From NCBI RefSeq assembly GCF_001677475.2, contig NZ_CP015229.1: a stretch of DNA of 64,000 nucleotides. The stretch is one strand, 5' to 3'. Source of the stretch: Escherichia coli. Its GTDB lineage: Bacteria; Pseudomonadota; Gammaproteobacteria; Enterobacterales; Enterobacteriaceae. Of the stretch, positions 15,001-64,000 are shown piece by piece. A program made the position numbers and the translations under genes. Numbering within the stretch: the first letter of the stretch is position 1; each line of letters begins with the position of its first letter. The notes beneath the pieces are model-generated. The model had not been told where the DNA came from and searched no databases. It was given only the letters and a program-made list of their open reading frames with translations.

Positions 15001-15095
15001 TTCTGACGCTGTATACCACACCGGTGGTGTATCTCTTTTTCGACCGTCTGCGGCTGCGTTTTTCGCGTAAACCTAAACAAACGGTAACCGAGTAA
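12018..15095 (+). CDS. mdtC: RND multidrug efflux transporter subunit
   Basis: 1025-aa ORF, paralogous to mdtB, immediately adjacent (GTG start at 12018). Confidence 0.9.
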
Positions 15096-43542: not shown

Positions 43543-43622
43543 CTTAATGCCTCTTAAATTAAAAAGCCGCCATGGGGATAGCGGCCATGTTTATTACCTG
43601 GAGAAACTTGCAATTTTATTTA

Positions 43623-44165: not shown

Positions 44166-44458
44166 AATATGTTCCTTAATAAAATTTATTTTTGGTTGTT
44201 AAGAGTCTGTATCTCTTGGAAACAAATTTCTCACATCAAAAAAGTTGCCGCAATGTAAACATATTGTTTTATTGATTTAAAACAAATTAACCATTGCAAT
44301 ATAAATACAACAAATACTTAAGAGTATTAAATATTTATCGCATCTATTAATTAATGTAGATTTATGTAAATGGTATTGTTGATATCAATAAAAAAAGCCG
44401 AAATCATTTATATAAATGATTTCGGCTTTCTAAATGCAATTAAAACCAGGGTGGCAAA

Positions 44459-44740
44459 TTAATCGTAGCGATTTAACACGATTCGACGTTTGCTATCGCT
44501 ACCTGCAACAACCACTTCTGTCGTCACACCTTTGACTGGCGAAGAAACCTGATGACGGGTATCAACATCATACGTTAACTGACCACAATGCTGTTGAGGT
44601 TGACCATTAACCATAGCCATACTGCATGTTGGGGGACTGATCCTGCCATTAATCGTTAATGTGGCAGTCTGTGAAGAGAACGCGGGAGAAGCCATTCCAT
44701 AGGCAAGAAAAATAATTCCTGACAGCCAGTACTTATTCAT
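44459..44740 (-). CDS. yehE: Small secreted protein YehE
   Basis: 93-aa ORF with signal peptide, upstream of yehD on the same strand. Confidence 0.6.
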   Translation of the reverse strand: MNKYWLSGIIFLAYGMASPAFSSQTATLTINGRISPPTCSMAMVNGQPQQHCGQLTYDVDTRHQVSSPVKGVTTEVVVAGSDSKRRIVLNRYD

Positions 44741-44929
44741 TGAACGTTATCCCTGTAGTAAAGGTTATGCCTGGATAGAATGAGTGCATAACAAACTATA
44801 GCTGTACATCCACTACACAGCCACGAAGGATGATAATGAAGCATTGCCTGTACGATCAATCGACTTTATAGAGTTTCGGACGAAGGTCCGCAGAATATTC
44901 GCAGCATTAAATAAGTGTTCATTAATGCG

Positions 44930-44973
44930 GCAAAAACAAATACACCGCATCAATGTTACATCTCTGCGGTGTA
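44930..44973 (-). terminator. Rho-independent terminator downstream of apbC
   Basis: Stem tacaccgca/tgcggtgta (44941-44973) followed on the minus strand by a T-rich run (ttgtttttgcc). Confidence 0.5.
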
Positions 44974-45002
44974 TGAAAAACAACCAAAAAGGTTAATGCG
45001 CG

Positions 45003-46112: not shown

Positions 46113-46243
46113 CCCGACTCCTTTTTTGTATAGATAAACCATCAGCTGATAGTTTACCTGAAGAATATAGAGAAGTACTTACTTAACATTTTCCCATTTG
46201 GTACTATCTAACCCCTTTTCACTATTAAGAAGTAATGCCTACT

Positions 46244-48277
46244 ATGACTCAAGTCGCGAAGAAAATTCTGGTGACGTGCGCACTGCCGTACGCTAACGGC
46301 TCAATCCACCTCGGCCATATGCTGGAGCACATCCAGGCTGATGTCTGGGTCCGTTACCAGCGAATGCGCGGCCACGAGGTCAACTTCATCTGCGCCGACG
46401 ATGCCCACGGCACACCGATCATGCTGAAAGCTCAGCAGCTTGGTATCACTCCGGAGCAGATGATTGGCGAAATGAGTCAGGAGCATCAGACTGATTTCGC
46501 AGGCTTTAACATCAGCTATGACAACTATCACTCAACGCACAGCGAAGAGAACCGCCAGTTGTCAGAACTTATTTATTCTCGCCTGAAAGAAAACGGTTTT
46601 ATTAAAAACCGCACCATCTCTCAGCTGTACGATCCGGAAAAAGGCATGTTCCTGCCGGACCGTTTTGTGAAAGGCACCTGCCCGAAATGTAAATCCCCGG
46701 ATCAATACGGCGATAACTGTGAAGTCTGCGGCGCGACCTACAGCCCGACTGAGCTGATCGAGCCTAAATCGGTGGTTTCTGGTGCTACGCCGGTAATGCG
46801 TGATTCTGAACACTTCTTCTTTGATCTGCCCTCTTTCAGCGAAATGCTGCAGGCATGGACCCGCAGCGGCGCGTTGCAGGAGCAAGTGGCAAACAAAATG
46901 CAGGAGTGGTTTGAATCTGGCCTGCAACAGTGGGATATCTCCCGCGATGCGCCGTACTTCGGTTTTGAAATTCCGAACGCACCGGGCAAATATTTCTACG
47001 TCTGGCTGGATGCGCCGATTGGCTACATGGGTTCTTTCAAGAATCTGTGCGACAAACGCGGCGACACCACCAGCTTCGATGAATACTGGAAGAAAGATTC
47101 CACCGCCGAGCTGTACCACTTCATCGGTAAAGATATCGTTTACTTCCACAGCCTGTTCTGGCCTGCCATGCTGGAAGGCAGCAACTTCCGCAAGCCGACC
47201 AACCTGTTTGTTCATGGCTATGTGACGGTGAACGGCGCGAAGATGTCCAAGTCTCGCGGCACCTTTATTAAAGCCAGCACCTGGCTGAATCATTTTGACG
47301 CTGACAGCCTGCGTTACTACTACACTGCGAAACTCTCTTCGCGCATTGATGATATCGATCTCAACCTGGAAGATTTCGTTCAGCGTGTGAATGCCGATAT
47401 CGTGAATAAAGTGGTTAACCTGGCCTCCCGTAACGCTGGCTTTATCAACAAGCGTTTTGACGGCGTGCTGGCAAGCGAACTGGCTGACCCGCAGTTGTAC
47501 AAAACCTTCACGGATGCCGCTGAAGTGATTGGTGAAGCATGGGAAAGCCGCGAATTTGGTAAAGCAGTGCGCGAAATTATGGCGCTGGCTGATCTGGCTA
47601 ACCGCTATGTCGATGAACAGGCTCCGTGGGTGGTGGCGAAACAGGAAGGCCGCGATGCCGACCTGCAGGCAATTTGTTCGATGGGCATCAACCTGTTCCG
47701 CGTGCTGATGACTTACCTGAAGCCGGTACTGCCGAAACTGACCGAGCGTGCAGAAGCATTCCTCAATACAGAACTGACCTGGCATGGTATCCAGCAACCG
47801 CTGCTGGCGCATAAAGTGAATCCGTTCAAGGCACTGTATAACCGTATCGATATGAAACAGGTGGAAGCACTGGTGGAAGCATCCAAAGAAGAAGTGAAAG
47901 CCACAGCCGCACCGGTAACTGGCCCACTGGCTGACGACCCGATTCAGGAAACCATCACCTTTGACGACTTCGCCAAAGTTGACCTGCGTGTGGCGCTGAT
48001 TGAAAACGCGGAGTTTGTTGAAGGCTCTGACAAACTGCTGCGTCTGACACTGGATCTCGGTGGTGAAAAGCGTAATGTCTTCTCAGGCATCCGTTCTGCT
48101 TATCCAGACCCACAGGCACTGATTGGTCGTCACACCATTATGGTGGCCAACCTGGCACCACGTAAAATGCGCTTCGGTATCTCCGAAGGCATGGTGATGG
48201 CTGCCGGTCCTGGCGGGAAAGATATCTTCCTGCTAAGCCCGGATGCCGGTGCTAAACCGGGTCATCAGGTGAAATAA
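46244..48277 (+). CDS. metG: Methionyl-tRNA synthetase
   Basis: Track ORF 46235..48277; ATG at 46244 gives 677 aa starting [19 protein letters not shown] with HIGH (HLGH) and KMSKS motifs. Confidence 0.95.
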
Positions 48278-48316: not shown

Positions 48317-48417
48317 ATAAATTCCTAAAGTTGTTTTCTTGCGATTTTGTCTCTCTCTAACCCGCATAAATACTGGTAGCATCTGCATTCAACTGGATAA
48401 AATTACAGGGATGCAGA

Positions 48418-51400
48418 ATGAGACACTTTATCTTTCAGGACGAAAAATCACATAAATTCTGGGCGGTGGAGCAGCAGGGAAACGAGCTGCATATCAACTG
48501 GGGAAAAGTCGGCACCAACGGGCAAAGTCAGGTAAAAAGCTTTGCTGATGCTGCGGCGGCGGAAAAAGCGGAACTGAAGTTGATTGCGGAGAAGATTAAG
48601 AAGGGGTATGTGGATGATGGTTCGCCAGAAACCATCATAAACTCTCCGATATCAAGCACAGTTTCAGTACAAGAGTTAGCAATATCAACAGGAAACTTCA
48701 CAACGACTGAAACGGCACAGCCACAAGCGATGCCCACGTTGGAAACGCCGCCCTGGCTGAAGAACGGTGAGTCAATTGTTATTTTTGCCAATGCTGAACC
48801 CGCGCCGTTTAGCCATCGTCACTTGATTAATGATCCTCTGGACATTGTTGATAAAGATGGCTTCTTCTGGATACAACTAAAAGAGTACCCATATTGGGCA
48901 GCATTTTACCTTGCCTGTCTGCAAAAGTTCGATGTCAGCCAATGCCAGTCAGAATGGCAATTGGCGTTACAGGAAACTATTTCGCGCATCCAGAAATTAC
49001 AGCAAGACGGATCGTTGCTTTCCGACGTCATATTGACACTGACAAGATTAATTATCGGCCGCCCCGGTCGCCCTCATACATGGCTGGATAGCATAGTGCA
49101 ACTGCGAGGCCTTGAGTATGCCACTGAGTTAGTTATCGCTATGCAGCATGTACAAATGACTGACGACGCAAATACCGATCCTACAAAAAATGCCACTTTA
49201 AAACTTCATTACAATAGTCTTTTTAGTGCGCTGAGAAGAGGGGAAATGGCAGACAATTATTATCTACCTGTAGTAAGCCTTAGCCACGATATTTCCGACA
49301 TGCGCTACAAATATGGATTCAGCGACGAAATAGAGTTACGTTTACGAGAACACCTTTCGCACACAGATGAGGAAACCTGGCAACGCTGTGCTAATAAACT
49401 CATAGATGCTCTCCCTTCACTGCCTCCCCGCAAACGCCCATTAATTGCTTTTTTGCTACCAGAAAAACCAGATATTGCCAATCAGATAGCCCTGGAAATT
49501 GCCCCTATGCATGATTACCCAGAGATTGAGTGGCTTTCCCTTGTCACAACTGACCCGCAAGCAACGTGTCTGCTGAAGAATTTCCATCAACTTGAACTCA
49601 CAACGGGATGGGGAGGCGATATGACGAATCGTTGTATTAAAACCCTACTGCGTGAACAAGGTCTTAATGCCCTGTCACGTCTGCAAGAGGGAGTTAACGA
49701 TAGTTATCCTGTCAGACACGCACTTCAGGAAATTAACCATCCTGATGTCGTTACGTTGTTTATCAAAGAGGAATGTGCCATAGGTGTCGAAATTTCGGCT
49801 TCGAAGTACCCAGAATCGGCGCTTTATGCCCTTACTGCAGCTTTGCTTAGTGCTAAAAATCTGAGGTATTCTCGCCTGATGGAACGAATTGTATTAGGTA
49901 ATGCTCAAACCTTGCGTAATACAATGCCCTGGTTGAGTGAGGAACAGAAACAACTTTTATTCAGTTATTTTCCTCAACTTCATGCTAAAGAAGAGATAGC
50001 CAATGCTTGTGAGTTACCCGGTATATTAACTAATCCAATTTGGCTGAAGAAAAAGAATAAATCCGCCACGACGATATTTACATTACCCGTATTGCCTCTG
50101 GAGTCCATTGGCCCCAACCCTCAGCCACAACCCGAAGCAGAAATACCTTCTACTGCTGAAGTCTTACGCCACCTGGGATTCAGTAGTGGAGCATTTGAAG
50201 AGAATAATCCTGATCCAGAAAGATTCGATATTAAATGGGGCGTAACCAAAACGGCCATTCGTCTTCTGGAAACGGAAGATTATGAATCGTTGTTAAATAC
50301 CCGACCAAAGTATGATTATGAAGGTTTTATTACCTTTTATGTATCCATACTCACTCGTCTACCAGCAGAGAAAGCGCTCTCAATCTGGAATGGACTCTCA
50401 CACATGCACCTCGTGGGTGCTGAGAAAGTGGTTGAGCGATTTGGTCTATCTACGGTACCGGGTCTGTTGCGTTATGCCCTGGTAAACCCTAAGGAGGCGG
50501 TTCCCCTGGCAGCACAATTCGGTGCAACTGAAGTTGCCCTGCTGATGGCCCGCGCATTTTGCCAGTTAAAATCCGTACGAGATGTCGCCGAATATTGGCT
50601 CACCACCTACCCGGAACATGCCATTACCGGGCTGCTGCCTATTGCGCTGGGTAAACCAGTTAAAGAACAACAAGATGCCCGGATGACATTACGCTACCTG
50701 GTCAATAATGGTCATCTCGCGTTGCTGAAAAAAATTGCCAGCCGTTACCAACAACCTGAGGTAATAACTGCACTTACCGACTTTTTAGCAGCAGATCCGC
50801 TGGAAAACTATCCACAGAAAATCGCCAAACTCCCTGGGTGGTGTTCACCAGAAGTATGGCACCGCCCGCTTCTGCGCAGTAACGGCAAGGCACTTTCAGA
50901 TTCAGCCATCCTGCACCTGTGCACCATGCTCTCTTTTCCCCGCGAAGCCACCCTTTACCCAGGGATAACACAGGTAATCAAGGCCTGTACTCCGCAATCT
51001 CTTGCCGATTTCGCCTGGGATCTCTTCCTCAGTTGGGAATCTGCCAGTGGCTCCGCTAAAGATAACTGGGCATTTACCGCACTGGGGATTCTGGGCAACG
51101 ATGACACCGCCCGCAAACTCACCCCGCTCATCCGCGCCTGGCCGGGGGAATCTCAGCATAAACGCGCCACTGTCGGGCTGGATATTCTTGCTGCTATCGG
51201 CAGCGATATCGCCCTGATGCAGCTTAACGGCATCGCGCAAAAGCTAAAATTTAAAGCCTTGCAGGATCAGGCAAGAGTTAAAATCGCCCAGATTGCCGAA
51301 AGCCGCCAACTCACCGTCGCAGAAATGGAAGACCGGTTAGCGCCGGATCTCGGACTGGATGATAACGGCTCACTACTGCTGGATTTCGGCCCACGCCAGT

Positions 51401-52254
51401 TCACCGTCAGCTTTGATGAATCCTTAAAACCGTTTGTGCGCGATGCTTCCGGCAGCCGCCTGAAAGACCTGCCCAAACCGAACAAAAGCGATGATGAAAC
51501 ACTGGCTGAGGAAGCGGTAAATCGCTACAAGTTGTTGAAAAAAGATGTCCGCACGGTGGCAGCGCAACAAATTTCGCGTCTGGAAGCCGCCATGTGTCAG
51601 CGTCGCCGCTGGACAGCAGAACAGTTCCGCCTGTTTCTGGTTGAGCATCCCCTGGTACGTCATATCACCCAACGTCTGATGTGGGGCGTATACGATGCAG
51701 ATAATCAGCTTATCACCTGTTTTCGCGTGGCGGAGGATGGCAGTTTTAGCGACGGTCAGGATAACCCGTTAACCCCTGCGCAGGGTAGCATCGGTATCCC
51801 GCATGTGCTGGAAATCCCGGCCCCGCAGGCGGCTGAATTTGCTCAACTGTTTTCTGACTACGAACTCCTGCCACCGTTCCGTCAACTCGATCGCCCCTGG
51901 TCTCAGCTCTCTGATTCAGAAAAAAACAGCAACGATTTGCAGCGCTGGGCTGGTCGCCAGGCACCAAGTGGGCGCGTCGCCGGGCTGATGAATAAAGGCT
52001 GGCAACGGGGCGATGTGCTGGATGGTGGCGGCTATTACTCATTTTATAAAGCTGTGGATGATGGCTACGTCGAACTGAGTGTGACACCCGGCTTCAGTGT
52101 TGGATTACCCGTCACCGAAATCAGCGCCAGCCAAAAAATTGAGCACATTCAGTTGTGCAAACTGACGCCGCACAAATCGGTTTATCCCTTCTCCGTGCTC
52201 GACGACATCACCGCCAGCGAACTCATTAACGATATTGAATCACTGTTTGATTAA
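48418..52254 (+). CDS. molR: Giant WGR-domain/DUF4132-type protein, paralog 1 (molR-like), 1278 aa
   Basis: Uninterrupted 1278-aa ORF; N-terminal ~60 aa has WGR-domain character (KFWAVEQQGNELHINWGKVGTNGQSQ); C-terminal ~350 aa conserved with paralogs 2 and 3. Symbol from memory of the K-12 locus after metG. Confidence 0.75.
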   Translation: MRHFIFQDEKSHKFWAVEQQGNELHINWGKVGTNGQSQVKSFADAAAAEKAELKLIAEKIKKGYVDDGSPETIINSPISSTVSVQELAISTGNFTTTETAQPQAMPTLETPPWLKNGESIVIFANAEPAPFSHRHLINDPLDIVDKDGFFWIQLKEYPYWAAFYLACLQKFDVSQCQSEWQLALQETISRIQKLQQDGSLLSDVILTLTRLIIGRPGRPHTWLDSIVQLRGLEYATELVIAMQHVQMTDDANTDPTKNATLKLHYNSLFSALRRGEMADNYYLPVVSLSHDISDMRYKYGFSDEIELRLREHLSHTDEETWQRCANKLIDALPSLPPRKRPLIAFLLPEKPDIANQIALEIAPMHDYPEIEWLSLVTTDPQATCLLKNFHQLELTTGWGGDMTNRCIKTLLREQGLNALSRLQEGVNDSYPVRHALQEINHPDVVTLFIKEECAIGVEISASKYPESALYALTAALLSAKNLRYSRLMERIVLGNAQTLRNTMPWLSEEQKQLLFSYFPQLHAKEEIANACELPGILTNPIWLKKKNKSATTIFTLPVLPLESIGPNPQPQPEAEIPSTAEVLRHLGFSSGAFEENNPDPERFDIKWGVTKTAIRLLETEDYESLLNTRPKYDYEGFITFYVSILTRLPAEKALSIWNGLSHMHLVGAEKVVERFGLSTVPGLLRYALVNPKEAVPLAAQFGATEVALLMARAFCQLKSVRDVAEYWLTTYPEHAITGLLPIALGKPVKEQQDARMTLRYLVNNGHLALLKKIASRYQQPEVITALTDFLAADPLENYPQKIAKLPGWCSPEVWHRPLLRSNGKALSDSAILHLCTMLSFPREATLYPGITQVIKACTPQSLADFAWDLFLSWESASGSAKDNWAFTALGILGNDDTARKLTPLIRAWPGESQHKRATVGLDILAAIGSDIALMQLNGIAQKLKFKALQDQARVKIAQIAESRQLTVAEMEDRLAPDLGLDDNGSLLLDFGPRQFTVSFDESLKPFVRDASGSRLKDLPKPNKSDDETLAEEAVNRYKLLKKDVRTVAAQQISRLEAAMCQRRRWTAEQFRLFLVEHPLVRHITQRLMWGVYDADNQLITCFRVAEDGSFSDGQDNPLTPAQGSIGIPHVLEIPAPQAAEFAQLFSDYELLPPFRQLDRPWSQLSDSEKNSNDLQRWAGRQAPSGRVAGLMNKGWQRGDVLDGGGYYSFYKAVDDGYVELSVTPGFSVGLPVTEISASQKIEHIQLCKLTPHKSVYPFSVLDDITASELINDIESLFD

Positions 52255-52266
52255 AAGGATTTAGCA

Positions 52267-55200
52267 ATGAAAACCTATATTTATCAGGACGAAAAATCAC
52301 ATAAATTCTGGGCGGTGGAGCAGCAAGACAACGAGCTGCATATTAGCTGGGGTAAAGTCGGTACTAACGGGCAAAGTCAGGTAAAAAGCTTTGCTGATGC
52401 TGCGGCGGCGGAAAAAGCGGAACTGAAGTTGATTGCGGAGAAAACAAAAAAGGGCTACGTAGAAGAAGTATCCGTGATAACACCGACATCTGTCCCCGTC
52501 CAGGTTATCGAATGCCCCGAAATAGCCCCTTTGCCACAAGACAAACCAGTATTTGTTGGAGACAACCTCCCCTGGCTGGCAGACGACGCCCAAATCATTT
52601 TACCGACAGAGGTTGCGCCAACCACACTAAGTCATCGACGCTGGCCTGGCGATCCTGTGCCACAGGAGAATGAATTAACTCTGCTACGCTCCGTCGCCGC
52701 GAATACTCACCGACGTTTTAAAAAGGTGATCACCTTCGATTACAGCACCTGTTCACTGGACTGGCAGCAGGCGATAACACAAGCAGTGGGCCTTATCGAC
52801 TCGCCGATTAGCACCACGCTACCACCGATGGTTCTGGCGGTACTGGTTGCGCTGGAACAAGGCTTCAATCGTAACGATCACGAAGAGTTAATGGATCAAA
52901 TTGTCCAGGAAGGTGGTCTGGAATATGCCACTGAGGTTGTCATTGCACTACAATTCATCCGCTTCGACTGGGATTATGATGCCCATCTTATTACGTTCAC
53001 CCCGGATGACAGGCAGCCTGGCTATCTGTTGCGCTTTGCCTCGGTTGAAATGCGCCTGCGCAAGCATTTCTCACTTGCAAATGACGATGTATGGCAGCGC
53101 TGCGCCGACAAACTGATTGCCGCTCTCGGAAACATGCCCGCCTGGCACCAGCCGCTGGTTGCACTATTGTTGCCGGAAAAACCAGAAGTAGCTCATGAGA
53201 TTGCCAGACATTTTTGCGGGCAAAAAGGGTTATATGCGCTGGAATGGCTAAAACTGACGGTCACCGATGCTCAGGTATTAGCAGACCTGGAAAAATACTA
53301 TCCAGGACAGCCTGGGCAGGTATTTGATGATTACTATGGCGGTAACATCTGGTGTGCGACAGCACTCCAGGAGCAAGGAGTCACTGCGCTGGCCCGTTTT
53401 GCCCATTACGCTACTGGTGACACATGTGGTGAAGTGTTGATGCATATCAACCACCCGCAGGCACTTACACTACTTATCCATGCAAGCGAGCAAGGAAAGC
53501 GTTGCCACGATCGCATGACAAAGGCTTTCGTTCGCTTCCCACACGCAGCGCTGGCGGCATTAGCAGAACTTCTGGCACAAAAAGATGAAAAGCGCTGGCG
53601 CATGATGCTAATGACGATGCTTATCTCGCAACCGGCACTAGCAGAACAGGTCACTCCCTGGCTCTCAACCCCCGCAGTTGCAGTGCTGAAATCATGCCAG
53701 CAACAACTGACACAGCCCTCAAACCATGCCAGCGCCGATCTACTGCCAGCCATATTAGTCTCACCGCCCTGGCTTTCGAAAAAGAAAAAATCTGTAATGC
53801 CGGTATTGGATTTAACGCCATTACCGCTGGAGTCATGCTGCACATTGACCGAGACGGCAGAAAAAGAGATTCATGCAAGGCATCGCTGGCACGCACATCA
53901 AATAGACGTCGGCCAAAAAGAGGATATTCAGAACTACCTGACACGTCTGGGTTTCAATCGCTGGAATAATGGCCAGTATATGAAAGCGTCTGATGCTGTT
54001 GTAGAACTCTGGCAGAGGGGAGATTATTCTGCGCTAATCAGCGAATTTAAAACCTTCTGGCACTCCTATCAACGGGAATGGCAGCTTTACATGTTAGCCG
54101 CCCTGCCTATCGAAAAAACAGCGCAGGCGTGGAATGTCCTCAGTAAAGAGCCACACGTCGGTGTCGAGTTTGTCATGACGCACCTGCAACTCGCTGGGTT
54201 ACAGGGTTTTATTCACTCCTTTTCACGCTATCCACAAGAAGCTCTGCCTGTAGCACAATATTTTGCGGCTATCGAATTAGCGCCACTGATCGCCCGCGCC
54301 TTCAACAAACTCAAAACCCTACGACAAGACGCCCGCACCTGGCTGCTGAAATACCCGGAACACGCCATTACCGGCCTGCTACCTTCGGCGCTCGGCAAAG
54401 CCGGTGAAGCACAGGATAACGCCCGCGCTGCCTTGCGTATGCTTACCGAAAACGGTCATCAGCCATTACTGCAAGAAATCGCCCGGCGTTATAACCAGCC
54501 GGAAGTAACAGATGCGGTGAACGCTCTGCTTGCGCTCGATCCCTTAGATAATCACCCGACAAAAATCCCCACTCTTCCGGCCTTTTATCAGCCATCGCTC
54601 TGGACGCGCCCGGTATTAAAAGCAAATGCCCAATCACTGCCAGATAGCGCCCTCCTACGCCTCGGCGAAATGCTCCGCTTCCCTCAGGAAGAGGCACTGT
54701 ATCCGGGATTATTGCAGGTGAAAGCCGCCTGTACCGCCGACTCACTGGCTGAATTTGCCTGGGATCTGTTTACCGCCTGGCAGACCGCTGGCGCACCGTC
54801 GAAAGAAAGCTGGGCGTTCACTGCGTTAGGTGTTCTCGGCAACGATGACACCGCCCGCAAACTGACGCCTTTGATTCGCGCCTGGCCTGGTGAATCCCAG
54901 CATAAACGCGCCACCGTCGGGCTGGATATTCTCGCTGCTATCGGTAGTGATATCGCCCTGATGCAGCTTAACGGGATCGCCCAGAAACTGAAATTCAAAG
55001 CATTACAGGAGCGGGCAAAAGAAAAAATTGCCGACATTGCCGAGAGTCGCGAACTGACGGTAGCGGAGCTTGAAGATCGGTTAGCACCGGATCTCGGTCT
55101 GGATGATAACGGTTCGCTGCTGCTGGATTTTGGCCCACGGCAGTTCGCCGTCAGCTTTGATGAAACCTTAAAACCGTTTGTGCGCGATGTTTCCGGCAGC

Positions 55201-56028
55201 CGCCTGAAAGACTTACCTAAACCCAATAAAAGCGATGATGAATCACAGGCGAACGATGCTGTTAACCGCTACAAATTGCTGAAAAAAGATGCGCGTACCG
55301 TCGCCGCCCAGCAGGTAGCAAGGCTGGAATCCGCCATGTGCCTGCGCCGCCGCTGGTCGCCGGAAAACTTTCAGCTCTTCCTGGTTGAGCATCCGCTGGT
55401 TCGTCACTTAACCCGCCGTCTGATTTGGGGCGTTTATAGCGCCGAAAACGAGCTACTGGCTTGCTTTCGCGTGGCGGAAGATAACAGCTACAGCACCACA
55501 GACGATGATCTTTTCACCCTGCCGGAAGGCGATATCTCTGTTGGTATTCCTCACGTTCTGGAAATATCACCCACGGATGCCGCTGCCTTTGGTCAGCTTT
55601 TTGCCGACTACGAACTGTTACCGCCGTTCCGCCAGCTTGACCGCAACAGTTACGCGCTGACAGAAGCCGAACGCAACGCCAGTGAACTGTCCCGCTGGGC
55701 CGGCAGAAAATGTCCGAGCGGTCGAGTAATGGGGCTGGCGAATAAAGGCTGGATGCGTGGTGAACCGCAGGACGGTGGCTGGATCAGCTGGATGATCAAA
55801 CCTCTGGGCCGCTGGTCGTTAATTATGGAAATCGATGAAGGTTTTGCGGTCGGCATGTCGCCAGCCGAACTGAGTGCCGAGCAACTCTTAAGCAAGGTGT
55901 GGCTATGGAAAGGCAAAGCAGAAAACTATGGCTGGAGGAGTTATTCAACACAGGAAGCGCAGTTCTCCGTACTCGATGACATCACCGCCAGCGAGCTGAT
56001 TAGCGATATTGAATCTCTGTTTGAATAA
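52267..56028 (+). CDS. Giant WGR-domain/DUF4132-type protein, paralog 2, 1253 aa
   Basis: Uninterrupted 1253-aa ORF 12 nt downstream of paralog 1, with near-identical N-terminal WGR segment and conserved C-terminal region. Confidence 0.75.
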   Translation: MKTYIYQDEKSHKFWAVEQQDNELHISWGKVGTNGQSQVKSFADAAAAEKAELKLIAEKTKKGYVEEVSVITPTSVPVQVIECPEIAPLPQDKPVFVGDNLPWLADDAQIILPTEVAPTTLSHRRWPGDPVPQENELTLLRSVAANTHRRFKKVITFDYSTCSLDWQQAITQAVGLIDSPISTTLPPMVLAVLVALEQGFNRNDHEELMDQIVQEGGLEYATEVVIALQFIRFDWDYDAHLITFTPDDRQPGYLLRFASVEMRLRKHFSLANDDVWQRCADKLIAALGNMPAWHQPLVALLLPEKPEVAHEIARHFCGQKGLYALEWLKLTVTDAQVLADLEKYYPGQPGQVFDDYYGGNIWCATALQEQGVTALARFAHYATGDTCGEVLMHINHPQALTLLIHASEQGKRCHDRMTKAFVRFPHAALAALAELLAQKDEKRWRMMLMTMLISQPALAEQVTPWLSTPAVAVLKSCQQQLTQPSNHASADLLPAILVSPPWLSKKKKSVMPVLDLTPLPLESCCTLTETAEKEIHARHRWHAHQIDVGQKEDIQNYLTRLGFNRWNNGQYMKASDAVVELWQRGDYSALISEFKTFWHSYQREWQLYMLAALPIEKTAQAWNVLSKEPHVGVEFVMTHLQLAGLQGFIHSFSRYPQEALPVAQYFAAIELAPLIARAFNKLKTLRQDARTWLLKYPEHAITGLLPSALGKAGEAQDNARAALRMLTENGHQPLLQEIARRYNQPEVTDAVNALLALDPLDNHPTKIPTLPAFYQPSLWTRPVLKANAQSLPDSALLRLGEMLRFPQEEALYPGLLQVKAACTADSLAEFAWDLFTAWQTAGAPSKESWAFTALGVLGNDDTARKLTPLIRAWPGESQHKRATVGLDILAAIGSDIALMQLNGIAQKLKFKALQERAKEKIADIAESRELTVAELEDRLAPDLGLDDNGSLLLDFGPRQFAVSFDETLKPFVRDVSGSRLKDLPKPNKSDDESQANDAVNRYKLLKKDARTVAAQQVARLESAMCLRRRWSPENFQLFLVEHPLVRHLTRRLIWGVYSAENELLACFRVAEDNSYSTTDDDLFTLPEGDISVGIPHVLEISPTDAAAFGQLFADYELLPPFRQLDRNSYALTEAERNASELSRWAGRKCPSGRVMGLANKGWMRGEPQDGGWISWMIKPLGRWSLIMEIDEGFAVGMSPAELSAEQLLSKVWLWKGKAENYGWRSYSTQEAQFSVLDDITASELISDIESLFE

Positions 56029-56037
56029 GGAAATAAC

Positions 56038-59000
56038 ATGAACAAGGAATTACCGTGGCTGGCGGATAACGCACAACTGGAACTGAAATATAAAAAAGGC
56101 AAAACGCCGCTCAGCCATCGCAGTTGGCCGGGCGAACCGGTGCCTGTTATTACTGAAAGCCTCATCCAGACACTGGGTGATGAATTGCTACAAAAAGCTG
56201 AGAAGAAAAAAAACATTATCTGGCGTTATGAAAATTTTTCACTGGAGTAGCAGTCCGCCATCACGGAAGCCATCAACTTGATTGGCGAACACAAACCCTC
56301 AATTCCGGCACGGACAATGGCGGCGCTAGTCTGTATCGCGCAAAAGGACAGCCAACAGTTGCTCGACGAAATCGTCCAACAAGAGGGACTGGAATATGCG
56401 ACTGAGGTGGTGATTGCACGCCAGTTTATTACACGATGTTATGAGAGTGATCCTCTGCTAGTGACATTGCAGTATCAGAACGAGGACTATGGCTATGGTT
56501 ATCGCTCAGAAACCTATAACGAATTCGATCTGCGACTGCGTAAGCATCTCTCTCTGGCAGAGGAAAGCTGCTGGCAGCGTTGCGCCGACAAACTCATTGC
56601 CGCACTGCCAGGAATACCCAAAATTCGCCGTCCTTTTATTGCGCTGGTCCTCCCGGAAAAACCAGAAATAGCCAATGAGTTGGTAGGTCTTGAATGCCCG
56701 CGGACTCATTTTCATTCTAAGGAGTGGTTAAAAGCTGTTGCTACTGCCCCCCGGGCGGTGAGAAAACTCGAACACTACTGGAGCCAGGATATATTTAGCG
56801 ATCGCGAAGCCAGCTACATGTCGCATGAAAACCGCTTCGGGTACGCGGCCTGCGCCGCCCTTTTGCGTGAACAAGGACTGGCAGCCGTTCCGCGCCTGGC
56901 AATGTATGCCCATAGAGAGGATTGCGGAAGCCTGCTGGTACAAATTAACCATCCGCAGGTCATCCGCACCTTGCTGTTAGTTGCTGATAAAAACAAACCC
57001 AGCCTGCAACGTGTGGCTAAATACAGTAAAAATTTCCCCCACGCGACACTCGCCGCACTGGCAGAACTGCTGGCGCTAAAAGAACCACCTGCGCGTCCTG
57101 GTTATCCAATCATCGAAGACAAAAAGCTGCCTGCACAGCAAAAAGCACGTGATGAATACTGGCGTACGCTGTTACAAACGCTGATGGCATCGCAGCCACA
57201 ACTGGCAGAAGAGGTGATGCCGTGGTTAAGTACTCAAGCCCGGTCAGTGCTGAATAGTTATTTATCGGCACCGCCTAAAACGGTTATTGATAGCACCGAT
57301 AACAGCCAAATGCCTGAAATCCTCGTTTCACCACCGTGGCGTAGTAAGAAAAAAATGACAGTTCCACGTCTTGATTTGGCACCGTTCGAATTAACGCCGC
57401 AAGTTTACTGGAAACCAGGCGAACGAGAGAGGCTTGCCGCCACTGAGTCTGCCCGTTATTTCAGTACGGAATCTCTTGCGGAACGCATGGAACATAAAAG
57501 TGGACGAGTTGTACTACAGGAGCTGGGTTTTGGAGATGATGTATGGCTGTTTTTGAATTATATACTCCCCGGAAAACTGGATGCTGCACGCAATTCACTC
57601 ATTGTTCAGTGGCATTACTACCCAGGGCGGGTTGAAGAGATCATGAATGGCTGGAGCTCCCCGGAAGCTCAATTAGCAGAACAGGCGCTTCGCAGCGGTC
57701 ACGTAGAAGTGTTAATTAACATATGGGAAAATGACAGCTACTCACGCTATCGTCGGGAAAAGAGTATCTGGAACCTGTATTTATTGGCGCAGTTGCCGCG
57801 TGAGATGGCTTTGACTTTCTGGCTACGTATCAATGAGAAAAAGCATCTGTCTGCGGGTGAGGACTATTTTCTCAGTATCTTCGGATTGGATGCTCTACTA
57901 GGTCTGCTGTTGGCTTTTTCACATCGTCCAAAAGAAACATTTCCGTTAATTTTAAATTTCGGCGCAACCGAACTAGCCCTGCCCGTTGCCCGCGTCTGGC
58001 GACGTTTCGCGGCGCAGCGTGATCTGGCCCGCCAGTGGATTTTACAATGGCCGGAACATACGGCTACTGCACTTATCCCTCTTGTCTTCACCAAATCCAG
58101 CGATAATAGCGAAGCTGCATTACTTGCCCTGCGTTTACTTTACGAACAGGGACATGGCGAGTTACTGCAAACCGTGGCAAACCGCTGGCAGCGTACAGAT
58201 GTATGGCCTGCCCTGGAGCAATTACTTAAACAGAGTCCAATAGAGATTTACCCGACACGCATTCCAAAAGCCCCTGATTTCTGGCAGCCGGCAATGTGGT
58301 CCAGGCCGCGCCTTATCACGAATAATCAACCTGTTACTGATGACGCTCTGGAAATTATCGGCGAAATGCTGCGCTTTACCCAGGGCGGACGTTTTTATAG
58401 CGGACTGGAACAGCTGAAAACGTTTTGCCAGCCGCAAACGCTGGCAGCCTTTGCCTGGGATCTTTTCACCGCGTGGCAACAAGCTGGTGCTCCCGCAAAA
58501 GACAACTGGGCATTTCTGGCGTTAAGTCTCTTTGGCGACGAAAGCACGGCACGGGATCTGACGACACAGATCCTTGCCTGGCCACAGGAAGGCAAATCTG
58601 CCCGTGCTGTCAGTGGTCTGAATATACTTACTCAGATGAATAATGATATGGCACTGATACAGTTGCATCATATATCGCAACGGGCGAAATCCCGCCCCTT
58701 ACGTGATAACGCGGCGGAATTTCTTCAGGTGGTCGCAGAAAATCGCGGGCTAAGCCAGGAACAGTTAGCGGACAGATTAGTCCCAACACTGGGTCTTGAT
58801 GATCCGCAGGCGTTGATTTTTGATTTTGGTCCACGGCAATTTACCGTTCGCTTCGATGAAAACCTTAACCCGGTTATCTTTGATCAGCAAAACGTTCGCC
58901 AGAAAAGCGTTCCCCGGTTGCGCGCCGATGACGATCAACTGAAAGCACCCGAGGCACTGGCCCGACTAAAAGGGCTAAAAAAAGATGCCACTCAGGTGAG

Positions 59001-59670
59001 CAAAAACCTGCTCCCGCGTCTTGAAACTGCCCTGCGCACCACCCGACGCTGGTCGCTGGCAGATTTTCATTCTCTGTTTGTTAATCATCCCTTTACCCGC
59101 CTGGTTACTCGGCGATTGATATGGGGTGTTTATCCGGCAAATGAACCGCGTCGTTTACTCAACGCCTTTCGTGTGGCCGCTGAGGGGGAGTTCTGCAATG
59201 CGCAAGATGAGCCAATTGACCTGCCTGCCGATGCTCTGATTGGCATTGCCCACCCGTTAGAAATGGCAGCAGAAATGCGCAGTGAATTTGCACAGCTTTT
59301 TGCCGATTACGAAATTATGCCGCCTTTTCGCCAGTTGGCACGGCGCACAGTGCTGCTCACGCCTGACGAGTCAGCCAGTAATAGTTTGAATCGCTGGGAA
59401 GGTAAATCTGCTACCGTTGGGCAACTTATGGGAATGCGATACAAAGGCTGGGAGTCAGGCTATGAGAACGCATTTGTCTATGACCTGGGCGAGTACCGGC
59501 TGGTCCTTAAGTTTTCATCCGGTTTTAACCACTACAATGTTGATAGCAAAGCGCTAATGAGCTTCCGTTCTCTTCATGTATACCGTGAGAATAAATCTGT
59601 CACTTTTGCCGAACTTGATGTGTTTGATTTGAGTGAAGCGTTAAGCGCACCCGACGTTATTTTCCATTAA
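56038..59670 (+). pseudogene. yehI: yehI-like DUF4132 paralog 3 with in-frame amber codon at 56248..56250
   Basis: Track ORFs 56038..56250 and 56278..59670 are in the same frame, separated only by TAG (..ENFSLE*QSAITEAINLIGEH..). The full span is 1210 codons plus stop. Lacks the WGR N-terminal module of paralogs 1 and 2. Confidence 0.75.
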
Positions 59671-59730
59671 AACACAGCGGGCAGTGATGCGACTGCCCGT
59701 TATTAACACGACCTGCCACCGGGAAAAGCG

Positions 59731-60051
59731 ATGATCGTGCAAAAAGAGCTGGTCACTATTTACGATTATGAGGCCCCTGTACCTGAAGAGCCGTTTTCCT
59801 TCAGGCTTGAGATCCATAAACGCTCTGAATTATTTACAGGTTCCGTCTATCGACTGGAACGATTCCGGCTACGTCCAACATTTCATCAACGTGATCGAGA
59901 AGATGTCGACCCGCTAATAAATGATGCGTTGATTTATATAAGAGATGAGTTTATTGATGAGCGAAAATTACGAGGTGAATCACCTGAAACTGTAATAGCA
60001 ATTTTTAATCGCGAACTACAAAATATATTCAACCAACAAATAGAAAAATAG
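59731..60051 (+). CDS. yehK: Small protein YehK
   Basis: 106-aa ORF; position after yehI matches the gene order as I recall it. Confidence 0.7.
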   Translation: MIVQKELVTIYDYEAPVPEEPFSFRLEIHKRSELFTGSVYRLERFRLRPTFHQRDREDVDPLINDALIYIRDEFIDERKLRGESPETVIAIFNRELQNIFNQQIEK

Positions 60052-60104
60052 CTTTATTAAAGGGGGAAACGGTATTCCCCCTTAGATGCGTTTCAATTTG
60101 CCCG

Positions 60105-60194
60105 TTACTTCAACAAATCAATCAACCGTAACAGAGCCACTAATAGCTCCAGTACAGCAATGAGCACGGTTAACTTTTGTGTCAGCGTGTCCAT
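60105..60194 (-). CDS. Candidate 29-aa hydrophobic/amphipathic peptide (MDTLTQKLTVLIAVLELLVALLRLIDLLK)
   Basis: Minus-strand ATG at 60194 preceded by AAGGAG with 5-nt spacing; 29 codons then TAA. Not in the track (below 60 aa). Composition resembles small membrane peptides and type I toxins. Confidence 0.4.
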   Translation of the reverse strand: MDTLTQKLTVLIAVLELLVALLRLIDLLK

Positions 60195-60490
60195 CCGCTC
60201 TCCTTATTAAGGAGCGCAATACCAGCACCTTACCCTTACACTGCCTGTCGATACTGGTTTACGTATGTTGGACCACGATGTTGCACTCCGGATCAGGGCA
60301 CCACCTGCAGCACCACCCGTCCGGTAGCCAGGACTTAAAATTGGTCCGATCCGGCGCAACGTCCCAACCGTCTGGATTATAAATCTCATTATCTTAATTG
60401 CAACGGGGTCCACCGATGGTTATAATTCGTTCGTTGGAACACGATGTTGCACAGGCTGCGGTGTTGGGCCTGAAAATAGTAAATAAAAGA

Positions 60491-60516
60491 ACCTGCCTCA
60501 CCAGCAGGTTTTTTTA
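60491..60516 (+). terminator. Rho-independent terminator on the plus strand upstream of yehL
   Basis: Stem acctgc/gcaggt with 7-nt loop followed by ttttttt (60510-60516); implies a plus-strand transcript ending here with no annotated gene. Confidence 0.6.
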
Positions 60517-60626
60517 TTTACTGTGATCTGCTTTCCAGATATTTTTCGCTCAAACAACTAATGCGCAAAACATTTATTGCGCGTAAAATATCGTTTATTT
60601 CATTAATACATTTCAGGGATGAATAT

Positions 60627-61715
60627 ATGTCACCGCAGAATAATCATCTGCAGCGTCCGCCTGCCGCTGTGTTATACGCCGATGAACTGGCAAAATTAAA
60701 ACAAAATGATAACGCACCTTGCCCGCCAGGTTGGCAGTTAAGTTTGCCTGCGGCCCGCGCTTTTATCCTTGGCGACGAAGCGCAAAATATTAGCCGTAAA
60801 GTCGTGATCAGTCCCTCCGCTGTCGAACGCATGTTAGTCACTCTCGCTACCGGGCGCGGTTTGATGTTGGTGGGGGAACCTGGCACCGCAAAATCTCTCC
60901 TGTCTGAATTACTGGCGACCGCTATTAGCGGCGATGCCGGGTTAACCATCCAGGGCGGCGCATCTACCACCGAAGATCAAATCAAGTACGGCTGGAACTA
61001 CGCCCTGCTTATCAACCATGGTCCGTCAACGGAAGCGCTGGTCCCTGCCCCGCTTTACCAGGGAATGCGCGACGGCAAAATTGTCCGTTTTGAAGAGATA
61101 ACGCGTACACCGCTGGAAGTACAAGACTGTCTGTTAGGTATGCTTTCTGACAGGGTAATGACGGTGCCGGAACTCACTGGTGAAGCCAGTCAGCTCTATG
61201 CGCGGGAAGGCTTTAATATTATTGCCACTGCCAATACCCGCGATCGCGGCGTCAATGAAATGAGTGCTGCGCTAAAGCGTCGCTTCGATTTTGAAACTGT
61301 CTTTCCGATTATGGATTTCGCCCAGGAGCTGGAACTGGTCGCCAGTGCTTCCGCGCGTTTGCTGGCCCATAGCGGTATTCCGCATAAAGTGCCTGACGCG
61401 GTACTGGAATTACTGGTGCGCACGTTCCGCGATCTGCGTGCCAACGGCGAAAAGAAAACGTCAATGGATACACTGACAGCGATTATGTCCACCGCTGAAG
61501 CCGTTAACGTGGCCCATGCTGTGGGTGTCCGCGCCTGGTTTTTAGCGAATCGCGCGGGGGAGCCTGCCGACCTGGTGGATTGTATTGCCGGAACCATCGT
61601 CAAAGATAACGAAGAAGATCGCGCGCGTCTGCGCCGTTACTTCGAACAGCGCGTCGCCACACATAAAGAAGCTCACTGGCAGGCTTATTATCAAGCTCGC
61701 CACCGCCTGCCGTGA
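60627..61715 (+). CDS. yehL: AAA+ ATPase (MoxR-like)
   Basis: Track ORF 60561..61715; ATG at 60627 gives 362 aa starting MSPQNNHLQRPPAAVLYADELAKL; Walker A LVGEPGTAKS. Confidence 0.8.
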   Translation: MSPQNNHLQRPPAAVLYADELAKLKQNDNAPCPPGWQLSLPAARAFILGDEAQNISRKVVISPSAVERMLVTLATGRGLMLVGEPGTAKSLLSELLATAISGDAGLTIQGGASTTEDQIKYGWNYALLINHGPSTEALVPAPLYQGMRDGKIVRFEEITRTPLEVQDCLLGMLSDRVMTVPELTGEASQLYAREGFNIIATANTRDRGVNEMSAALKRRFDFETVFPIMDFAQELELVASASARLLAHSGIPHKVPDAVLELLVRTFRDLRANGEKKTSMDTLTAIMSTAEAVNVAHAVGVRAWFLANRAGEPADLVDCIAGTIVKDNEEDRARLRRYFEQRVATHKEAHWQAYYQARHRLP

Positions 61716-61725
61716 GGAAAGATGC

Positions 61726-64000
61726 ATGAGCGAGCCGTTAATTGTCGGCATCCGGCATCATAGTCCGGCCTGCGCCCGGCTGGTGAAATCGTTAATCGAA
61801 AGCCAGCGGCCACGATACGTGTTGATTGAAGGCCCGGCTGATTTTAATGACCGGGTAGACGAACTGTTGTTAGCCCACCAGCTTCCGGTAGCTATTTACA
61901 GTTATTGCCAGTATCAGGACGGTGCGGCCCCCGGGTGTGGTGCCTGGACGCCATTTGCTGAATTTTCGCCAGAGTGGCAGGCGCTACAAGCCGCACGTCG
62001 TATTCAGGCACAAACTTACTTCATCGATTTGCCTTGCTGGGCACAGAGTGAAGAAGAGGACGATTCGCCTGATACGCAAGAGGAAAGCCAGACCTTGCTG
62101 CTGCGTGCCACCCGCATGGATAACAGCGATACCCTGTGGGATCACTTGTTCGAAGATGAAAGCCAGCAAACTGCATTACCCTCTGCGCTGGTGCACTATT
62201 TTGCCCAACTGCGGGGCGACTCCCCCGGAGATGCTCTCAATCGTCAGCGTGAAGCCTTTATGGCCCGCTGGATTTCATGGGCGATGCAGCAAAATAATGG
62301 CGACGTGTTAGTTGTCTGCGGAGGCTGGCACGCTCCGGCACTGGCAAAAATGTGGCGCGAATGCCCGCAGGAAATTAACACGCCAGAATTGCCCTCGCTG
62401 GCAGATGCCGTTACAGGTTGTTATCTCACACCCTACAGTGAAAAGCGCCTTGATGTGCTGGCAGGATACCTTTCAGGAATGCCTGCCCCGGTCTGGCAAA
62501 ACTGGTGCTGGCGGTGGGGCTTGCAGCAGGCAGGTGAACAACTGCTGAAAACGGTTCTTACCCATTTGCGCCAGCACCACTTGCCTGCTTCAACAGCGGA
62601 TATGGCTGCCGCTCATCTACATGCGATGGCACTGGCACAGTTGCGTGGTCATACACTACCGTTACGCACTGACTGGCTGGATGCCATAGCAGGCTCGCTG
62701 ATTAAAGAAGCCCTGAATGCGCCGTTGCCGTGGAGCTATCGCGGCGTTATTCATCCCGATACCGATCCGATTCTGCTAACGTTGATAGACACATTAGCGG
62801 GTGACGGATTCGGTAAACTTGCCCCTTCTACGCCACAACCGCCTCTGCCAAAAGATGTCACCTGCGAACTGGAACGTACAGGAATCTCTTTTCCGGCGGA
62901 GCTTACCTTAAATCGCTTTACCCCCGATGGACTGGCGCAAAGTCAGGTGTTACATCGGCTGGCAATACTGGAGATCCCAGGGATTGTGCGCCAGCAGGGA
63001 AGTACACTGACACTTGCAGGCAACGGTGAAGAACACTGGAAATTAACCCGCCCGCTTAGCCAGCATGCGGCATTGATTGAGGCCGCATGCTTTGGTGCCA
63101 CACTCCAGGAAGCCGCACGCCATAAATTAGAAGCCGATATGCTGGACGCGGGTGGAATCGGCAGTATCACCACATGTCTTAGCCAGGCGGCGTTAGCGGG
63201 TCTGGCGTCCTTCAGTCAACAATTACTGGAGCAACTCACATTATTAATCGCCCAGGAAAATCAATTTGCCGAAATGGGCCAGGCGCTGGAAGTGCTATAT
63301 GCCTTATGGCGGCTGGATGAAATTAGCGGTATGCAAGGCGCGCAGATATTACAAACGACGTTATGCGCGGCTATCGATCGCACGCTGTGGCTGTGTGAAT
63401 CTAACGGCAGACCAGATGAAAAGGAGTTTCACGCTCACCTGCATAGCTGGCAGGCGCTTTGCCATATCCTGCGCGATCTACATAGCGGCGTTAATTTACC
63501 CGGCGTTTCTCTTTCTGCGGCGGTAGCCTTACTGGAGCGCCGCAGTCAGGCGATTCATGCCCCGGCGCTGGATCGCGGCGCGGCTCTTGGCGCACTGATG
63601 CGTCTGGAACATCCCAACGCCAGTGCCGAAGCGGCGCTGACGATGCTGGCGCAGTTATCCCCGACACAGTCCGGCGAGGCGCTGCACGGTTTGCTGGCAT
63701 TAGCCCGTCATCAACTGGCCTGTCAGCCGGCATTTATCGCCGGTTTCAGTAGTCATTTAAATCAACGGAGTGACGACGATTTTATTAACGCCCTGCCCGA
63801 TTTACGCGCGGCGATGGCCTGGCTACCACCACGAGAACGCGGGACGCTGGCGCATCAGGTGCTTGAGCATTACCAGCTCGCACAGCTTCCCGTTTCAGCG
63901 CTGCAAATGCCGTTGCATTGTCCACCGCAAGCCATTGCACATCATCAACAACTCGAACAGCAGGCACTGGCATCGCTGCAACACTGGGGAGTTTTCCATG
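61726..64000 (+). CDS. yehM: Large uncharacterised protein YehM (3' end beyond window)
   Basis: ATG at 61726, 11 nt after the yehL stop; frame 1 is open to the window end, so the gene is absent from the track. Begins MSEPLIVGIRHHSPACARLVKSLIE. Confidence 0.7.
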   Translation, partial: MSEPLIVGIRHHSPACARLVKSLIESQRPRYVLIEGPADFNDRVDELLLAHQLPVAIYSYCQYQDGAAPGCGAWTPFAEFSPEWQALQAARRIQAQTYFIDLPCWAQSEEEDDSPDTQEESQTLLLRATRMDNSDTLWDHLFEDESQQTALPSALVHYFAQLRGDSPGDALNRQREAFMARWISWAMQQNNGDVLVVCGGWHAPALAKMWRECPQEINTPELPSLADAVTGCYLTPYSEKRLDVLAGYLSGMPAPVWQNWCWRWGLQQAGEQLLKTVLTHLRQHHLPASTADMAAAHLHAMALAQLRGHTLPLRTDWLDAIAGSLIKEALNAPLPWSYRGVIHPDTDPILLTLIDTLAGDGFGKLAPSTPQPPLPKDVTCELERTGISFPAELTLNRFTPDGLAQSQVLHRLAILEIPGIVRQQGSTLTLAGNGEEHWKLTRPLSQHAALIEAACFGATLQEAARHKLEADMLDAGGIGSITTCLSQAALAGLASFSQQLLEQLTLLIAQENQFAEMGQALEVLYALWRLDEISGMQGAQILQTTLCAAIDRTLWLCESNGRPDEKEFHAHLHSWQALCHILRDLHSGVNLPGVSLSAAVALLERRSQAIHAPALDRGAALGALMRLEHPNASAEAALTMLAQLSPTQSGEALHGLLALARHQLACQPAFIAGFSSHLNQRSDDDFINALPDLRAAMAWLPPRERGTLAHQVLEHYQLAQLPVSALQMPLHCPPQAIAHHQQLEQQALASLQHWGVFH

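Follow-up and report, generated by a model that had tools for sequence, protein, structure and literature searches.

Two groups of described bacterial systems come closest to the yeh locus considered here, in which an array of giant genes for WGR and DUF4132 proteins precedes yehK, yehL and yehM in a 64,000-nucleotide (nt) stretch of Escherichia coli DNA (contig NZ_CP015229.1, assembly GCF_001677475.2), hereafter called the window. The first group consists of the MoxR-vWA 'VMAP' systems, which are built on a core pair formed by a MoxR AAA+ ATPase and a vWA protein. In their third protein, VMAP, an N-terminal module is followed by an all-alpha middle of high variability and then by a conserved alpha+beta domain at the C terminus that has no clear enzymatic function (Kaur, Burroughs, Iyer & Aravind 2020, PMC7159879); this VMAP-C domain carries conserved polar residues (PMC7159879). 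The second group consists of RavA-ViaA, CbbQ-CbbO, NorQ-NorD and CoxD-CoxE, in each of which a MoxR ATPase with an intact Walker A motif stands beside a VWA protein with an intact metal ion-dependent adhesion site (MIDAS). Known MoxR-VWA pairs sit beside their clients. An earlier note on this DNA had stated that no function is assigned to the yeh cluster, and this proved nearly right. The literature we searched assigns none to the module as a whole, but the first gene of the array is a homolog of K-12 molR, which is listed as a member of the LexA regulon, bears the legacy name 'molybdate metabolism regulator' and is annotated as disrupted in K-12. The module occupies ~20 kb in almost every E. 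coli genome, and at 50% identity the DUF4132 family (PF13569) numbers more than 8000 clusters, with 8127 representatives at E ≤ 0.001.

Our principal finding is that the WGR/DUF4132 genes and yehL, yehM, yehP and yehQ constitute one module whose composition and linkage are kept across distant phyla. We scanned a DUF4132 alignment over one genome per GTDB species, kept the 80 best-scoring loci with 10-kb flanks, and searched the open reading frames (ORFs) of these loci with iterated hidden Markov models (HMMs) built from the Escherichia proteins. Two of the components lie beyond the window: yehP (VWA) and yehQ (SWIM), named in the earlier note as following yehM, are indeed seen there in E. coli synteny, with yehR next, and were studied in an E. 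coli ortholog. The counts given below describe the best-scoring 80 loci and are not a census. In 44 of them, between one and at least eight tandem DUF4132 genes are followed by YehL, YehM, YehP and YehQ in this order, and 12 more carry a partial set, mostly at contig ends. The co-occurrence of WGR/DUF4132 genes with MoxR/VWA genes is thus found outside E. coli, in loci that include many Actinomycetota, Burkholderiales, Xanthomonadales, Enterobacterales, Myxococcota and Desulfobacterota. The gap between the last DUF4132 gene and yehL has a median of ~20 nt and does not exceed 100 nt in 47 of 56 loci, and the core genes overlap one another. No further gene family is recurrent in the 80 loci.

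The linkage was also approached from the opposite side by a YehM search of plasmid records, which yielded seven loci with the region in view, and DUF4132 is present in six. The full set occurs in an Iodobacter plasmid, a Streptomyces linear plasmid and the Proteus mirabilis chromosome. On Sinorhizobium and Allorhizobium plasmids the cassette is permuted to AAA-DUF5682-[WGR-DUF4132]-VWA-SWIM, with overlapping stop and start codons (positions 7872-18360 and 7872-18335 of the Rhizobiaceae loci L086 and L087, respectively). Because even this permuted order keeps the DUF4132 gene inside the cassette, we regard it as strong evidence for one functional unit. Together with the order and spacing conserved across phyla and the loci found from YehM, it supports the earlier proposal that the WGR/DUF4132 genes and yehLM(PQ) belong to one multi-component system. 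Nocardia farcinica NCTC11134 carries divergent homologs of YehL, YehM and YehP, within 10 kb of which neither DUF4132 nor YehQ could be detected, and may represent a reduced or different variant of the locus.

Individual loci show further features of context. Massilia rubra carries at least eight tandem DUF4132 genes upstream of a single yehLMPQ set on one contig. In Iodobacter fluviatilis, the cassette is located on the mobilizable plasmid pl1 with insertion sequences (IS) of the IS3, IS200 and IS630 types nearby; yehQ is split into two ORFs, and a type I restriction-modification system follows directly after the cassette.

Within the window, the array lies downstream of metG (46235-48277), and all six genes from the first paralog to yehM are on the plus strand. 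The first paralog, P1 (48418-52254, 1278 amino acids), occupies the molR-type slot and matches Pfam at its two ends, WGR at the N terminus (1.1e-17) and DUF4132 at the C terminus (3.5e-48), with nothing else matched in the variable helical middle. The second, P2 (52267-56028, 1253 amino acids), begins 12 nt after P1 and shares both ends with it, in agreement with the earlier description of tandem, same-strand giant genes with a common WGR N terminus. The third, yehI (56038-59670, a 1210-codon frame), has DUF4132 as its sole Pfam domain (2.1e-47) and lacks WGR. Paralogy of all three genes stands, and it is wider than was first proposed: rather than being restricted to the C-terminal ~350 residues, it extends over the full length, with 47% identity between P1 and P2 over 1312 columns and 39% between P2 and YehI. 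The comparison of P1 with P2 has a mosaic character, wherein the WGR domain is ~90% identical, P1 residues 880-1060 reach 85-100% (82-91% at the DNA level), and the middle falls to 20-40%.

The description of three consecutive genes of ~1210-1278 amino acids did not hold for yehI. An in-frame TAG at 56248-56250 interrupts the gene at a codon that reads TGG in E. coli FCI17 (17213-17215 of the FCI17 locus), and the open frame left is 1130 amino acids, starting from the TTG at 56278. In the present strain, yehI is a pseudogene or an N-terminally truncated, late-starting gene that carries a strain-specific nonsense mutation.

The P1 and P2 alleles differ sharply in their distribution from yehI and yehLM. 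When presence was defined as at least 80% coverage of a segment in 5426 E. coli genomes, yehLM was present in 5211 and yehI in 5222, whereas the P2 allele was present in 689 and the P1 allele in only two. The genes yehLM, yehI and metG are 97-98% identical to E. coli, and it is the variable genes that lower the overall mean to 93%. The locus is a conserved core beside a hypervariable slot adjoining metG. Losses are frequent, including the yehI amber codon here, the disrupted molR of K-12, and a yehI'-'yehM fusion in Shigella dysenteriae. In the last species, a protein annotated as a 'regulator' (401-456 amino acids) is a DUF5682 protein in which one stretch shares 98% identity with a portion of the C-terminal region of YehI, which is consistent with a deletion that fused yehI to yehM. 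The region has also received a resistance element, since the blaCTX-M-15 transposon TnMB1860 is inserted in the metG/DUF4132 region of sequence type 131 sublineage L1a (PMC9334617).

The giant proteins have constant ends and a changeable middle. Their N-terminal 65-80 residues form a WGR domain whose alignment profile matches PDB 2ra8 at 1.5e-23 and the WGR domain of PARP3 at 0.002, and the N terminus of P1 matches the WGR profile PF05406. The likeness to PARP ends there: a PARP catalytic domain is absent, and in bacteria WGR is a short stand-alone domain at the N terminus, with repeats attached, and a putative DNA binder. Profiles of the middle match designed helical repeats only. The C-terminal 385 residues are predicted confidently as an alpha+beta structure (predicted local distance difference test score of 92), and structure comparison of this domain returned no informative relative. 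Among the 150 best matches listed, the DUF4132 domain is nearly always C-terminal and the proteins are mostly ~1100-1300 residues long. In tandem paralogs of other taxa, the WGR domain and the DUF4132 core are better kept than the middle and the last 120 residues. We found no recognisable catalytic domain in DUF4132 proteins, and profile-profile comparisons of DUF4132 with YehQ and with YehM revealed no domain in common. For the WGR proteins of the window, NCBIfam returned just the WGR part of a Leptospira family. A scan of oversized DUF4132 proteins for fused effectors found a single case, a 1776-residue protein with histidine kinase, WGR and DUF4132 domains, which may be a real fusion or an artefact of gene-call read-through.

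This succession of WGR, helical middle and DUF4132 has the same tripartite layout as VMAP, to which we liken it by layout alone. The two kinds of protein further resemble each other in that paralogs are diversified within a genome and in that both are enriched in actinomycetes, myxobacteria and proteobacteria. The description of the VMAP systems by Kaur et al. (PMC7159879) mentions neither SWIM nor WGR nor YehL, and the few papers in which DUF4132 appears do not include it.

The ATPase and its VWA partner form the other point of likeness. The yehL gene (60627-61715) encodes a MoxR-family AAA+ ATPase of 362 amino acids (Pfam AAA_5); its start is placed by homology, and the start at 60561 in the ORF list is an upstream ATG. 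The Walker A sequence GEPGTAKS, and with it the succession of yehK, yehL and the large yehM after the array, is as the earlier note described. Both GEPGTAKS and an FEE at the Walker-B position are invariant in 30 homologs, and the mean column identity is 73% across phyla. The usual Walker B has an acidic pair, and YehL reads FEE at that place. The YehL ortholog in the enterobacterial locus L003 is likewise recorded as AAA_5, with a VWA gene downstream. YehL gives its name to one of the seven MoxR AAA+ subfamilies (PMC3893208), and its NCBIfam matches, to GvpN, MadB and McrB, are weak. YehP has 378 amino acids with nothing beyond VWA; its MIDAS residues D222, S224 and S226 (DQSGS), T281 and D307 are invariant in 25 homologs, with a mean column identity of 67%, and the ortholog in L003 matches Pfam VWA_CoxE. 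YehQ carries a SWIM signature (CxC...CxH; C70, C72, C78 and H80) that is invariant in 36 homologs, even though its Pfam SWIM match is weak (0.0013; at or below 0.001 in four of the 36 members and at or below 0.1 in 22). A PDB profile search with the YehQ alignment returned nothing meaningful.

The pair formed by YehL and YehP therefore resembles RavA-ViaA, CbbQ-CbbO, NorQ-NorD and CoxD-CoxE in having an intact Walker A beside an intact MIDAS. It differs from them in its lack of an adjacent client operon, in its three extra conserved partners, and in the FEE at Walker B. The differences from the VMAP systems are of another kind, as the yeh module has two additional invariant components, the SWIM protein and a DUF5682 protein resembling TIKI.

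This DUF5682 protein is YehM, encoded at 61726-64000, where the window end clips the gene after 758 of its 759 codons (Pfam match to DUF5682 at 3.6e-97). What is new here is that its N terminus has a TIKI/TraB/ChaN/HopBA1-like fold, built around the parallel beta-sheet core common to this superfamily, with invariant histidine and glutamate residues. The domain is fused to an alpha-helical solenoid of ~500 residues. H11, E35 and H202 are invariant, as are R10, D39, H51 and D101. In the superfamily, which includes TIKI, TraB, PrgY, erythromycin esterase, ChaN, HopBA1 and RRSP, the catalytic motif comprises two histidines and two glutamates (PMC6254334). A comparable set in YehM would consist of a histidine following strand 1 (H11), a glutamate following strand 2 (E35) and the histidine of a GGxH further on (H202), a likeness judged by sequence position rather than by three-dimensional superposition. 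YehM departs from the superfamily in being fused to the solenoid and in lacking a sequence-level match, since Pfam returns DUF5682 only and the PDB profile search was empty.

We consider the module to be probably an ATP-driven sensor and hydrolase machine, by analogy with the other MoxR-VWA systems. As to its role, we tentatively favour that of a conflict-type system that senses invading or damaged DNA and is built like the MoxR-vWA 'VMAP' systems, rather than one in molybdate regulation, and we place the probability of this reading at roughly 0.4. We lean towards a conflict-type role because of the hypervariable slot, the tandem arrays, and the plasmid and IS contexts, and likewise because of the type I restriction-modification neighbour on the Iodobacter plasmid, the control by H-NS, and the VMAP-like layout.

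In such a machine, YehL, YehP, YehM and YehQ would be the constant core, and one to many WGR-DUF4132 proteins would fill a variable slot. A YehL ring acting with the MIDAS adaptor YehP would spend ATP to restructure a complex based on YehM and YehQ, as in other MoxR-VWA pairs. The WGR-DUF4132 paralogs would serve as interchangeable sensor or adaptor subunits, whose constant ends, the WGR domain (related to the DNA-break-binding domain of PARP) and the alpha+beta DUF4132 domain, would dock to nucleic acid and to the core, and whose diverged helical middle and tail would set a distinct target for each paralog. The output would be hydrolysis, most likely proteolysis, at the His/Glu site of YehM, and in Escherichia the array would be turned on by DNA damage via a LexA box. 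Several handles are gained in this way: the genes can be approached as one five-part unit, one subunit bears a predicted hydrolase site of the TIKI type, the giant paralogs have the look of sensors that can be exchanged, and these paralogs appear to be tied to DNA-damage regulons in two distant bacteria. If the module does turn out to serve immunity or the response to DNA damage, it would widen the MoxR-vWA conflict class, give bacterial WGR domains a function, and retire the annotation 'molybdate regulator'.

A number of observations weigh against this conflict-type reading. The earlier note had recognised in the cluster the architecture of nucleotide-dependent conflict systems with MoxR and VWA components, and that comparison is apt as far as architecture goes: the layout does parallel that of the VMAP systems, but YehP, in contrast to the VMAP vWA proteins, has no effector domain fused at its C terminus, and no family of PADLOC-DB 2.0.0 matches any of the eight proteins at E ≤ 0.01. 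No effector-associated, caspase, TIR or cyclase domains were found, and Pfam reports no peptidase domain in P1 or YehI, again unlike the VMAP systems. YehL and YehP show, at the 73% and 67% given above, much stronger conservation between phyla than defence proteins typically do. In E. coli the module comes close to being core and keeps a fixed position, with metG on one side and yehR on the other, an uncommon situation for a defence system. When viral contigs were scanned with YehM, a single contig was returned, and this was E. coli-like. DUF4132 genes occur without yehLMPQ within 10 kb in 24 of the 80 loci. In the window itself, ~950 nt separate the array from yehLM, and this gap holds a hairpin, yehK and a toxin-antitoxin pair; because of it, the two parts are probably transcribed separately here. 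LexA-type boxes upstream of DUF4132 genes were found, among the sampled loci, in Escherichia and Klebsiella only. Regarding the output, hydrolase activity is suggested for YehM by its fold and residues, and ChaN, a member of the TIKI superfamily, is a non-enzymatic heme binder. Finally, a conflict role, with the phage, plasmid or DNA-damage phenotype that it implies, is read from architecture and context.

Searches aimed at phage biology added little. A literature search that combined WGR with anti-phage terms matched only the unrelated abbreviation wGRR. Near-perfect matches to PHROGs families were set aside as uninformative, given that these families are tiny, have no function attached, and most likely represent E. 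coli chromosomal DNA within prophage calls.

A bolder form of the conflict-type reading would make the module a fifth, hitherto undescribed class of MoxR-vWA multi-component conflict systems, in which swappable WGR-DUF4132 sensors of DNA ends or damage, a bacterial counterpart of the PARP break sensor, license the TIKI-family protease YehM via an ATP-driven complex of MoxR, VWA and SWIM proteins. We hold this to be doubtful. If it were true, nearly all E. coli, and many actinomycetes and myxobacteria too, would carry an SOS-linked innate-immunity or abortive-response machine.

The regulatory evidence also speaks to a different possibility, namely that the module is a machine for DNA-damage response or repair. 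By analogy with the repair of DNA-protein crosslinks by a protease together with an AAA+ protein, WGR and SWIM would attach to damaged DNA, proteins stuck to that DNA would be removed or processed by the MoxR-VWA motor together with the YehM hydrolase, and each DUF4132 paralog would have its own lesions or clients. A LexA (SOS) box-like site, AACTGGATAAAATTACAGGG, is located at 48391-48410 on the plus strand, 8 nt upstream of the P1 start codon. It scores 16.9 bits, at the bottom of the training range of 16.9-26.5 and at the top relative to 400 random 143-bp windows, with a 14-site matrix whose scores are indicative only. An identical site is present in the E. coli FCI17 locus and a related one in Klebsiella grimontii, so the box is kept in both the window and E. 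coli. A review table lists molR among the LexA-regulated genes with a known SOS box (PMC6590174). In Deinococcus radiodurans, the genes DR2173 (WGR) and DRA0165-DRA0166 (DUF4132) are strongly induced on depletion of the DNA-damage repressor DdrO (PMC8533742). The match of the WGR profile to PARP domains, the near-universal presence of the core in E. coli, and the strong conservation of YehL and YehP fit a repair role as well. Against these stand the sampled Betaproteobacteria, which use the same box type and show no LexA-type box upstream of DUF4132, and strict LexA or Cheo boxes were not enriched ahead of DUF4132 genes in other phyla when searched for. Hypervariable alleles and arrays of eight or more paralogs are atypical of repair genes, loss is tolerated given the pseudogene of the molR homolog in K-12 and the truncated yehI here, and DNA binding by YehQ is, like that by bacterial WGR, a presumption. 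On balance we regard a repair machine as a serious rival, albeit a less probable one than a conflict-type system.

The VWA_CoxE match of the YehP ortholog, the membership of YehL in a MoxR subfamily of its own, and the weak matches of YehL to GvpN, MadB and McrB could instead indicate a classical maturation chaperone, one that inserts a metal or cofactor into a housekeeping enzyme or assembles it, as do CoxD/CoxE, NorQ/NorD, CbbQ/CbbO and RavA/ViaA. The DUF4132 proteins would then be scaffolds or clients, and the molR name, which refers to molybdate utilisation, would reflect a real link; the conservation of YehL and YehP would suit such a housekeeping task, as would the legacy annotation. No client enzyme operon is conserved beside the cassette in the 80 loci, and this makes a chaperone role less likely, in view of the placement of known pairs beside their clients. 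Tandem diversification and hypervariability of the slot also speak against it, and regulation of the locus by SOS and H-NS would likewise be out of keeping with a chaperone; yehL and yehM are up in an hns/stpA mutant (PMC3686432). BglJ-RcsB activates the molR promoter (PMC3950696). The molybdate-metabolism genes of Deinococcus did not respond along with the WGR and DUF4132 homologs (PMC8533742), and the literature searched contains no follow-up of the link between molR and molybdate. We regard the chaperone explanation as rather improbable.

That there is no functional unit at all, with the array, yehK and yehLMPQ mere neighbours in Escherichia and the array a decaying remnant, might be argued from the interrupted spacing in the window, the yehI nonsense codon, the disrupted K-12 molR and the 24 orphan loci, but this explanation is very improbable and is already contradicted by the co-occurrence data, which comprise order and tight spacing kept across phyla, a permuted cassette that encloses DUF4132, its presence in six of the seven loci found from YehM, and the fact that at least three orphans come from genomes with a complete locus as well (Massilia atriviolacea, M. 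frigida and M. rubra).

The interval between the array and yehL in the window contains, among other features, two elements that stand outside the conserved module. Directly 3' of the yehI stop codon, a GC-rich hairpin at 59678-59699 on the plus strand may terminate the transcript of the DUF4132 array or mark its boundary, although the scan called the hairpin on the minus strand and the T-run that follows it on the plus strand is weak. The next gene, yehK (59731-60051, plus strand, 106 amino acids), had been counted as a component of the system. It does not belong there: our HMM search detected it in Escherichia loci only (one locus set of 83), it was not found in the enterobacterial locus L003, and it has no PDB, NCBIfam or PADLOC match. 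The gene is Escherichia-specific and lies outside the conserved cassette.

The 575-nt spacer between yehK and yehL holds the small peptide ORF that had also been proposed as a component. This ORF (MDTLTQKLTVLIAVLELLVALLRLIDLLK, 60105-60194, minus strand) encodes a ZorO-like type I toxin of 29 amino acids, and an OrzO-P antitoxin RNA is encoded at 60440-60515 on the plus strand (Rfam RF02083, 101.3 bits against a gathering score of 60, E 3.2e-16, full model length). Divergent promoter-like hexamers at 60403-60376 (minus strand) and 60398-60426 (plus strand) fit both the toxin and the OrzO-P transcripts, and would give the toxin messenger a 5' untranslated region of ~175 nt. In E. coli O157:H7 a type I toxin-antitoxin has been reported from precisely the spacer between yehI and yehL, and it is absent from K-12 (Fozo et al. 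2010, PMC2887945). By the Rfam match, the ORF and the published location, the peptide ORF and the RNA are a ZorO-OrzO toxin-antitoxin pair, an insertion unrelated to the module. The pair is like that of O157:H7 in combining a 29-residue hydrophobic ORF with an OrzO-P RNA in the same spacer, and unlike it in being present as a single copy in the window rather than as a tandem pair; it also stands outside the yeh module.

Upstream of metG, the GC content falls to 0.35-0.37 at 43500-45000 of the window, compared with ~0.5 around it. From E. coli synteny, we presume that this low-GC stretch may be the yehD/yehE fimbrial region.

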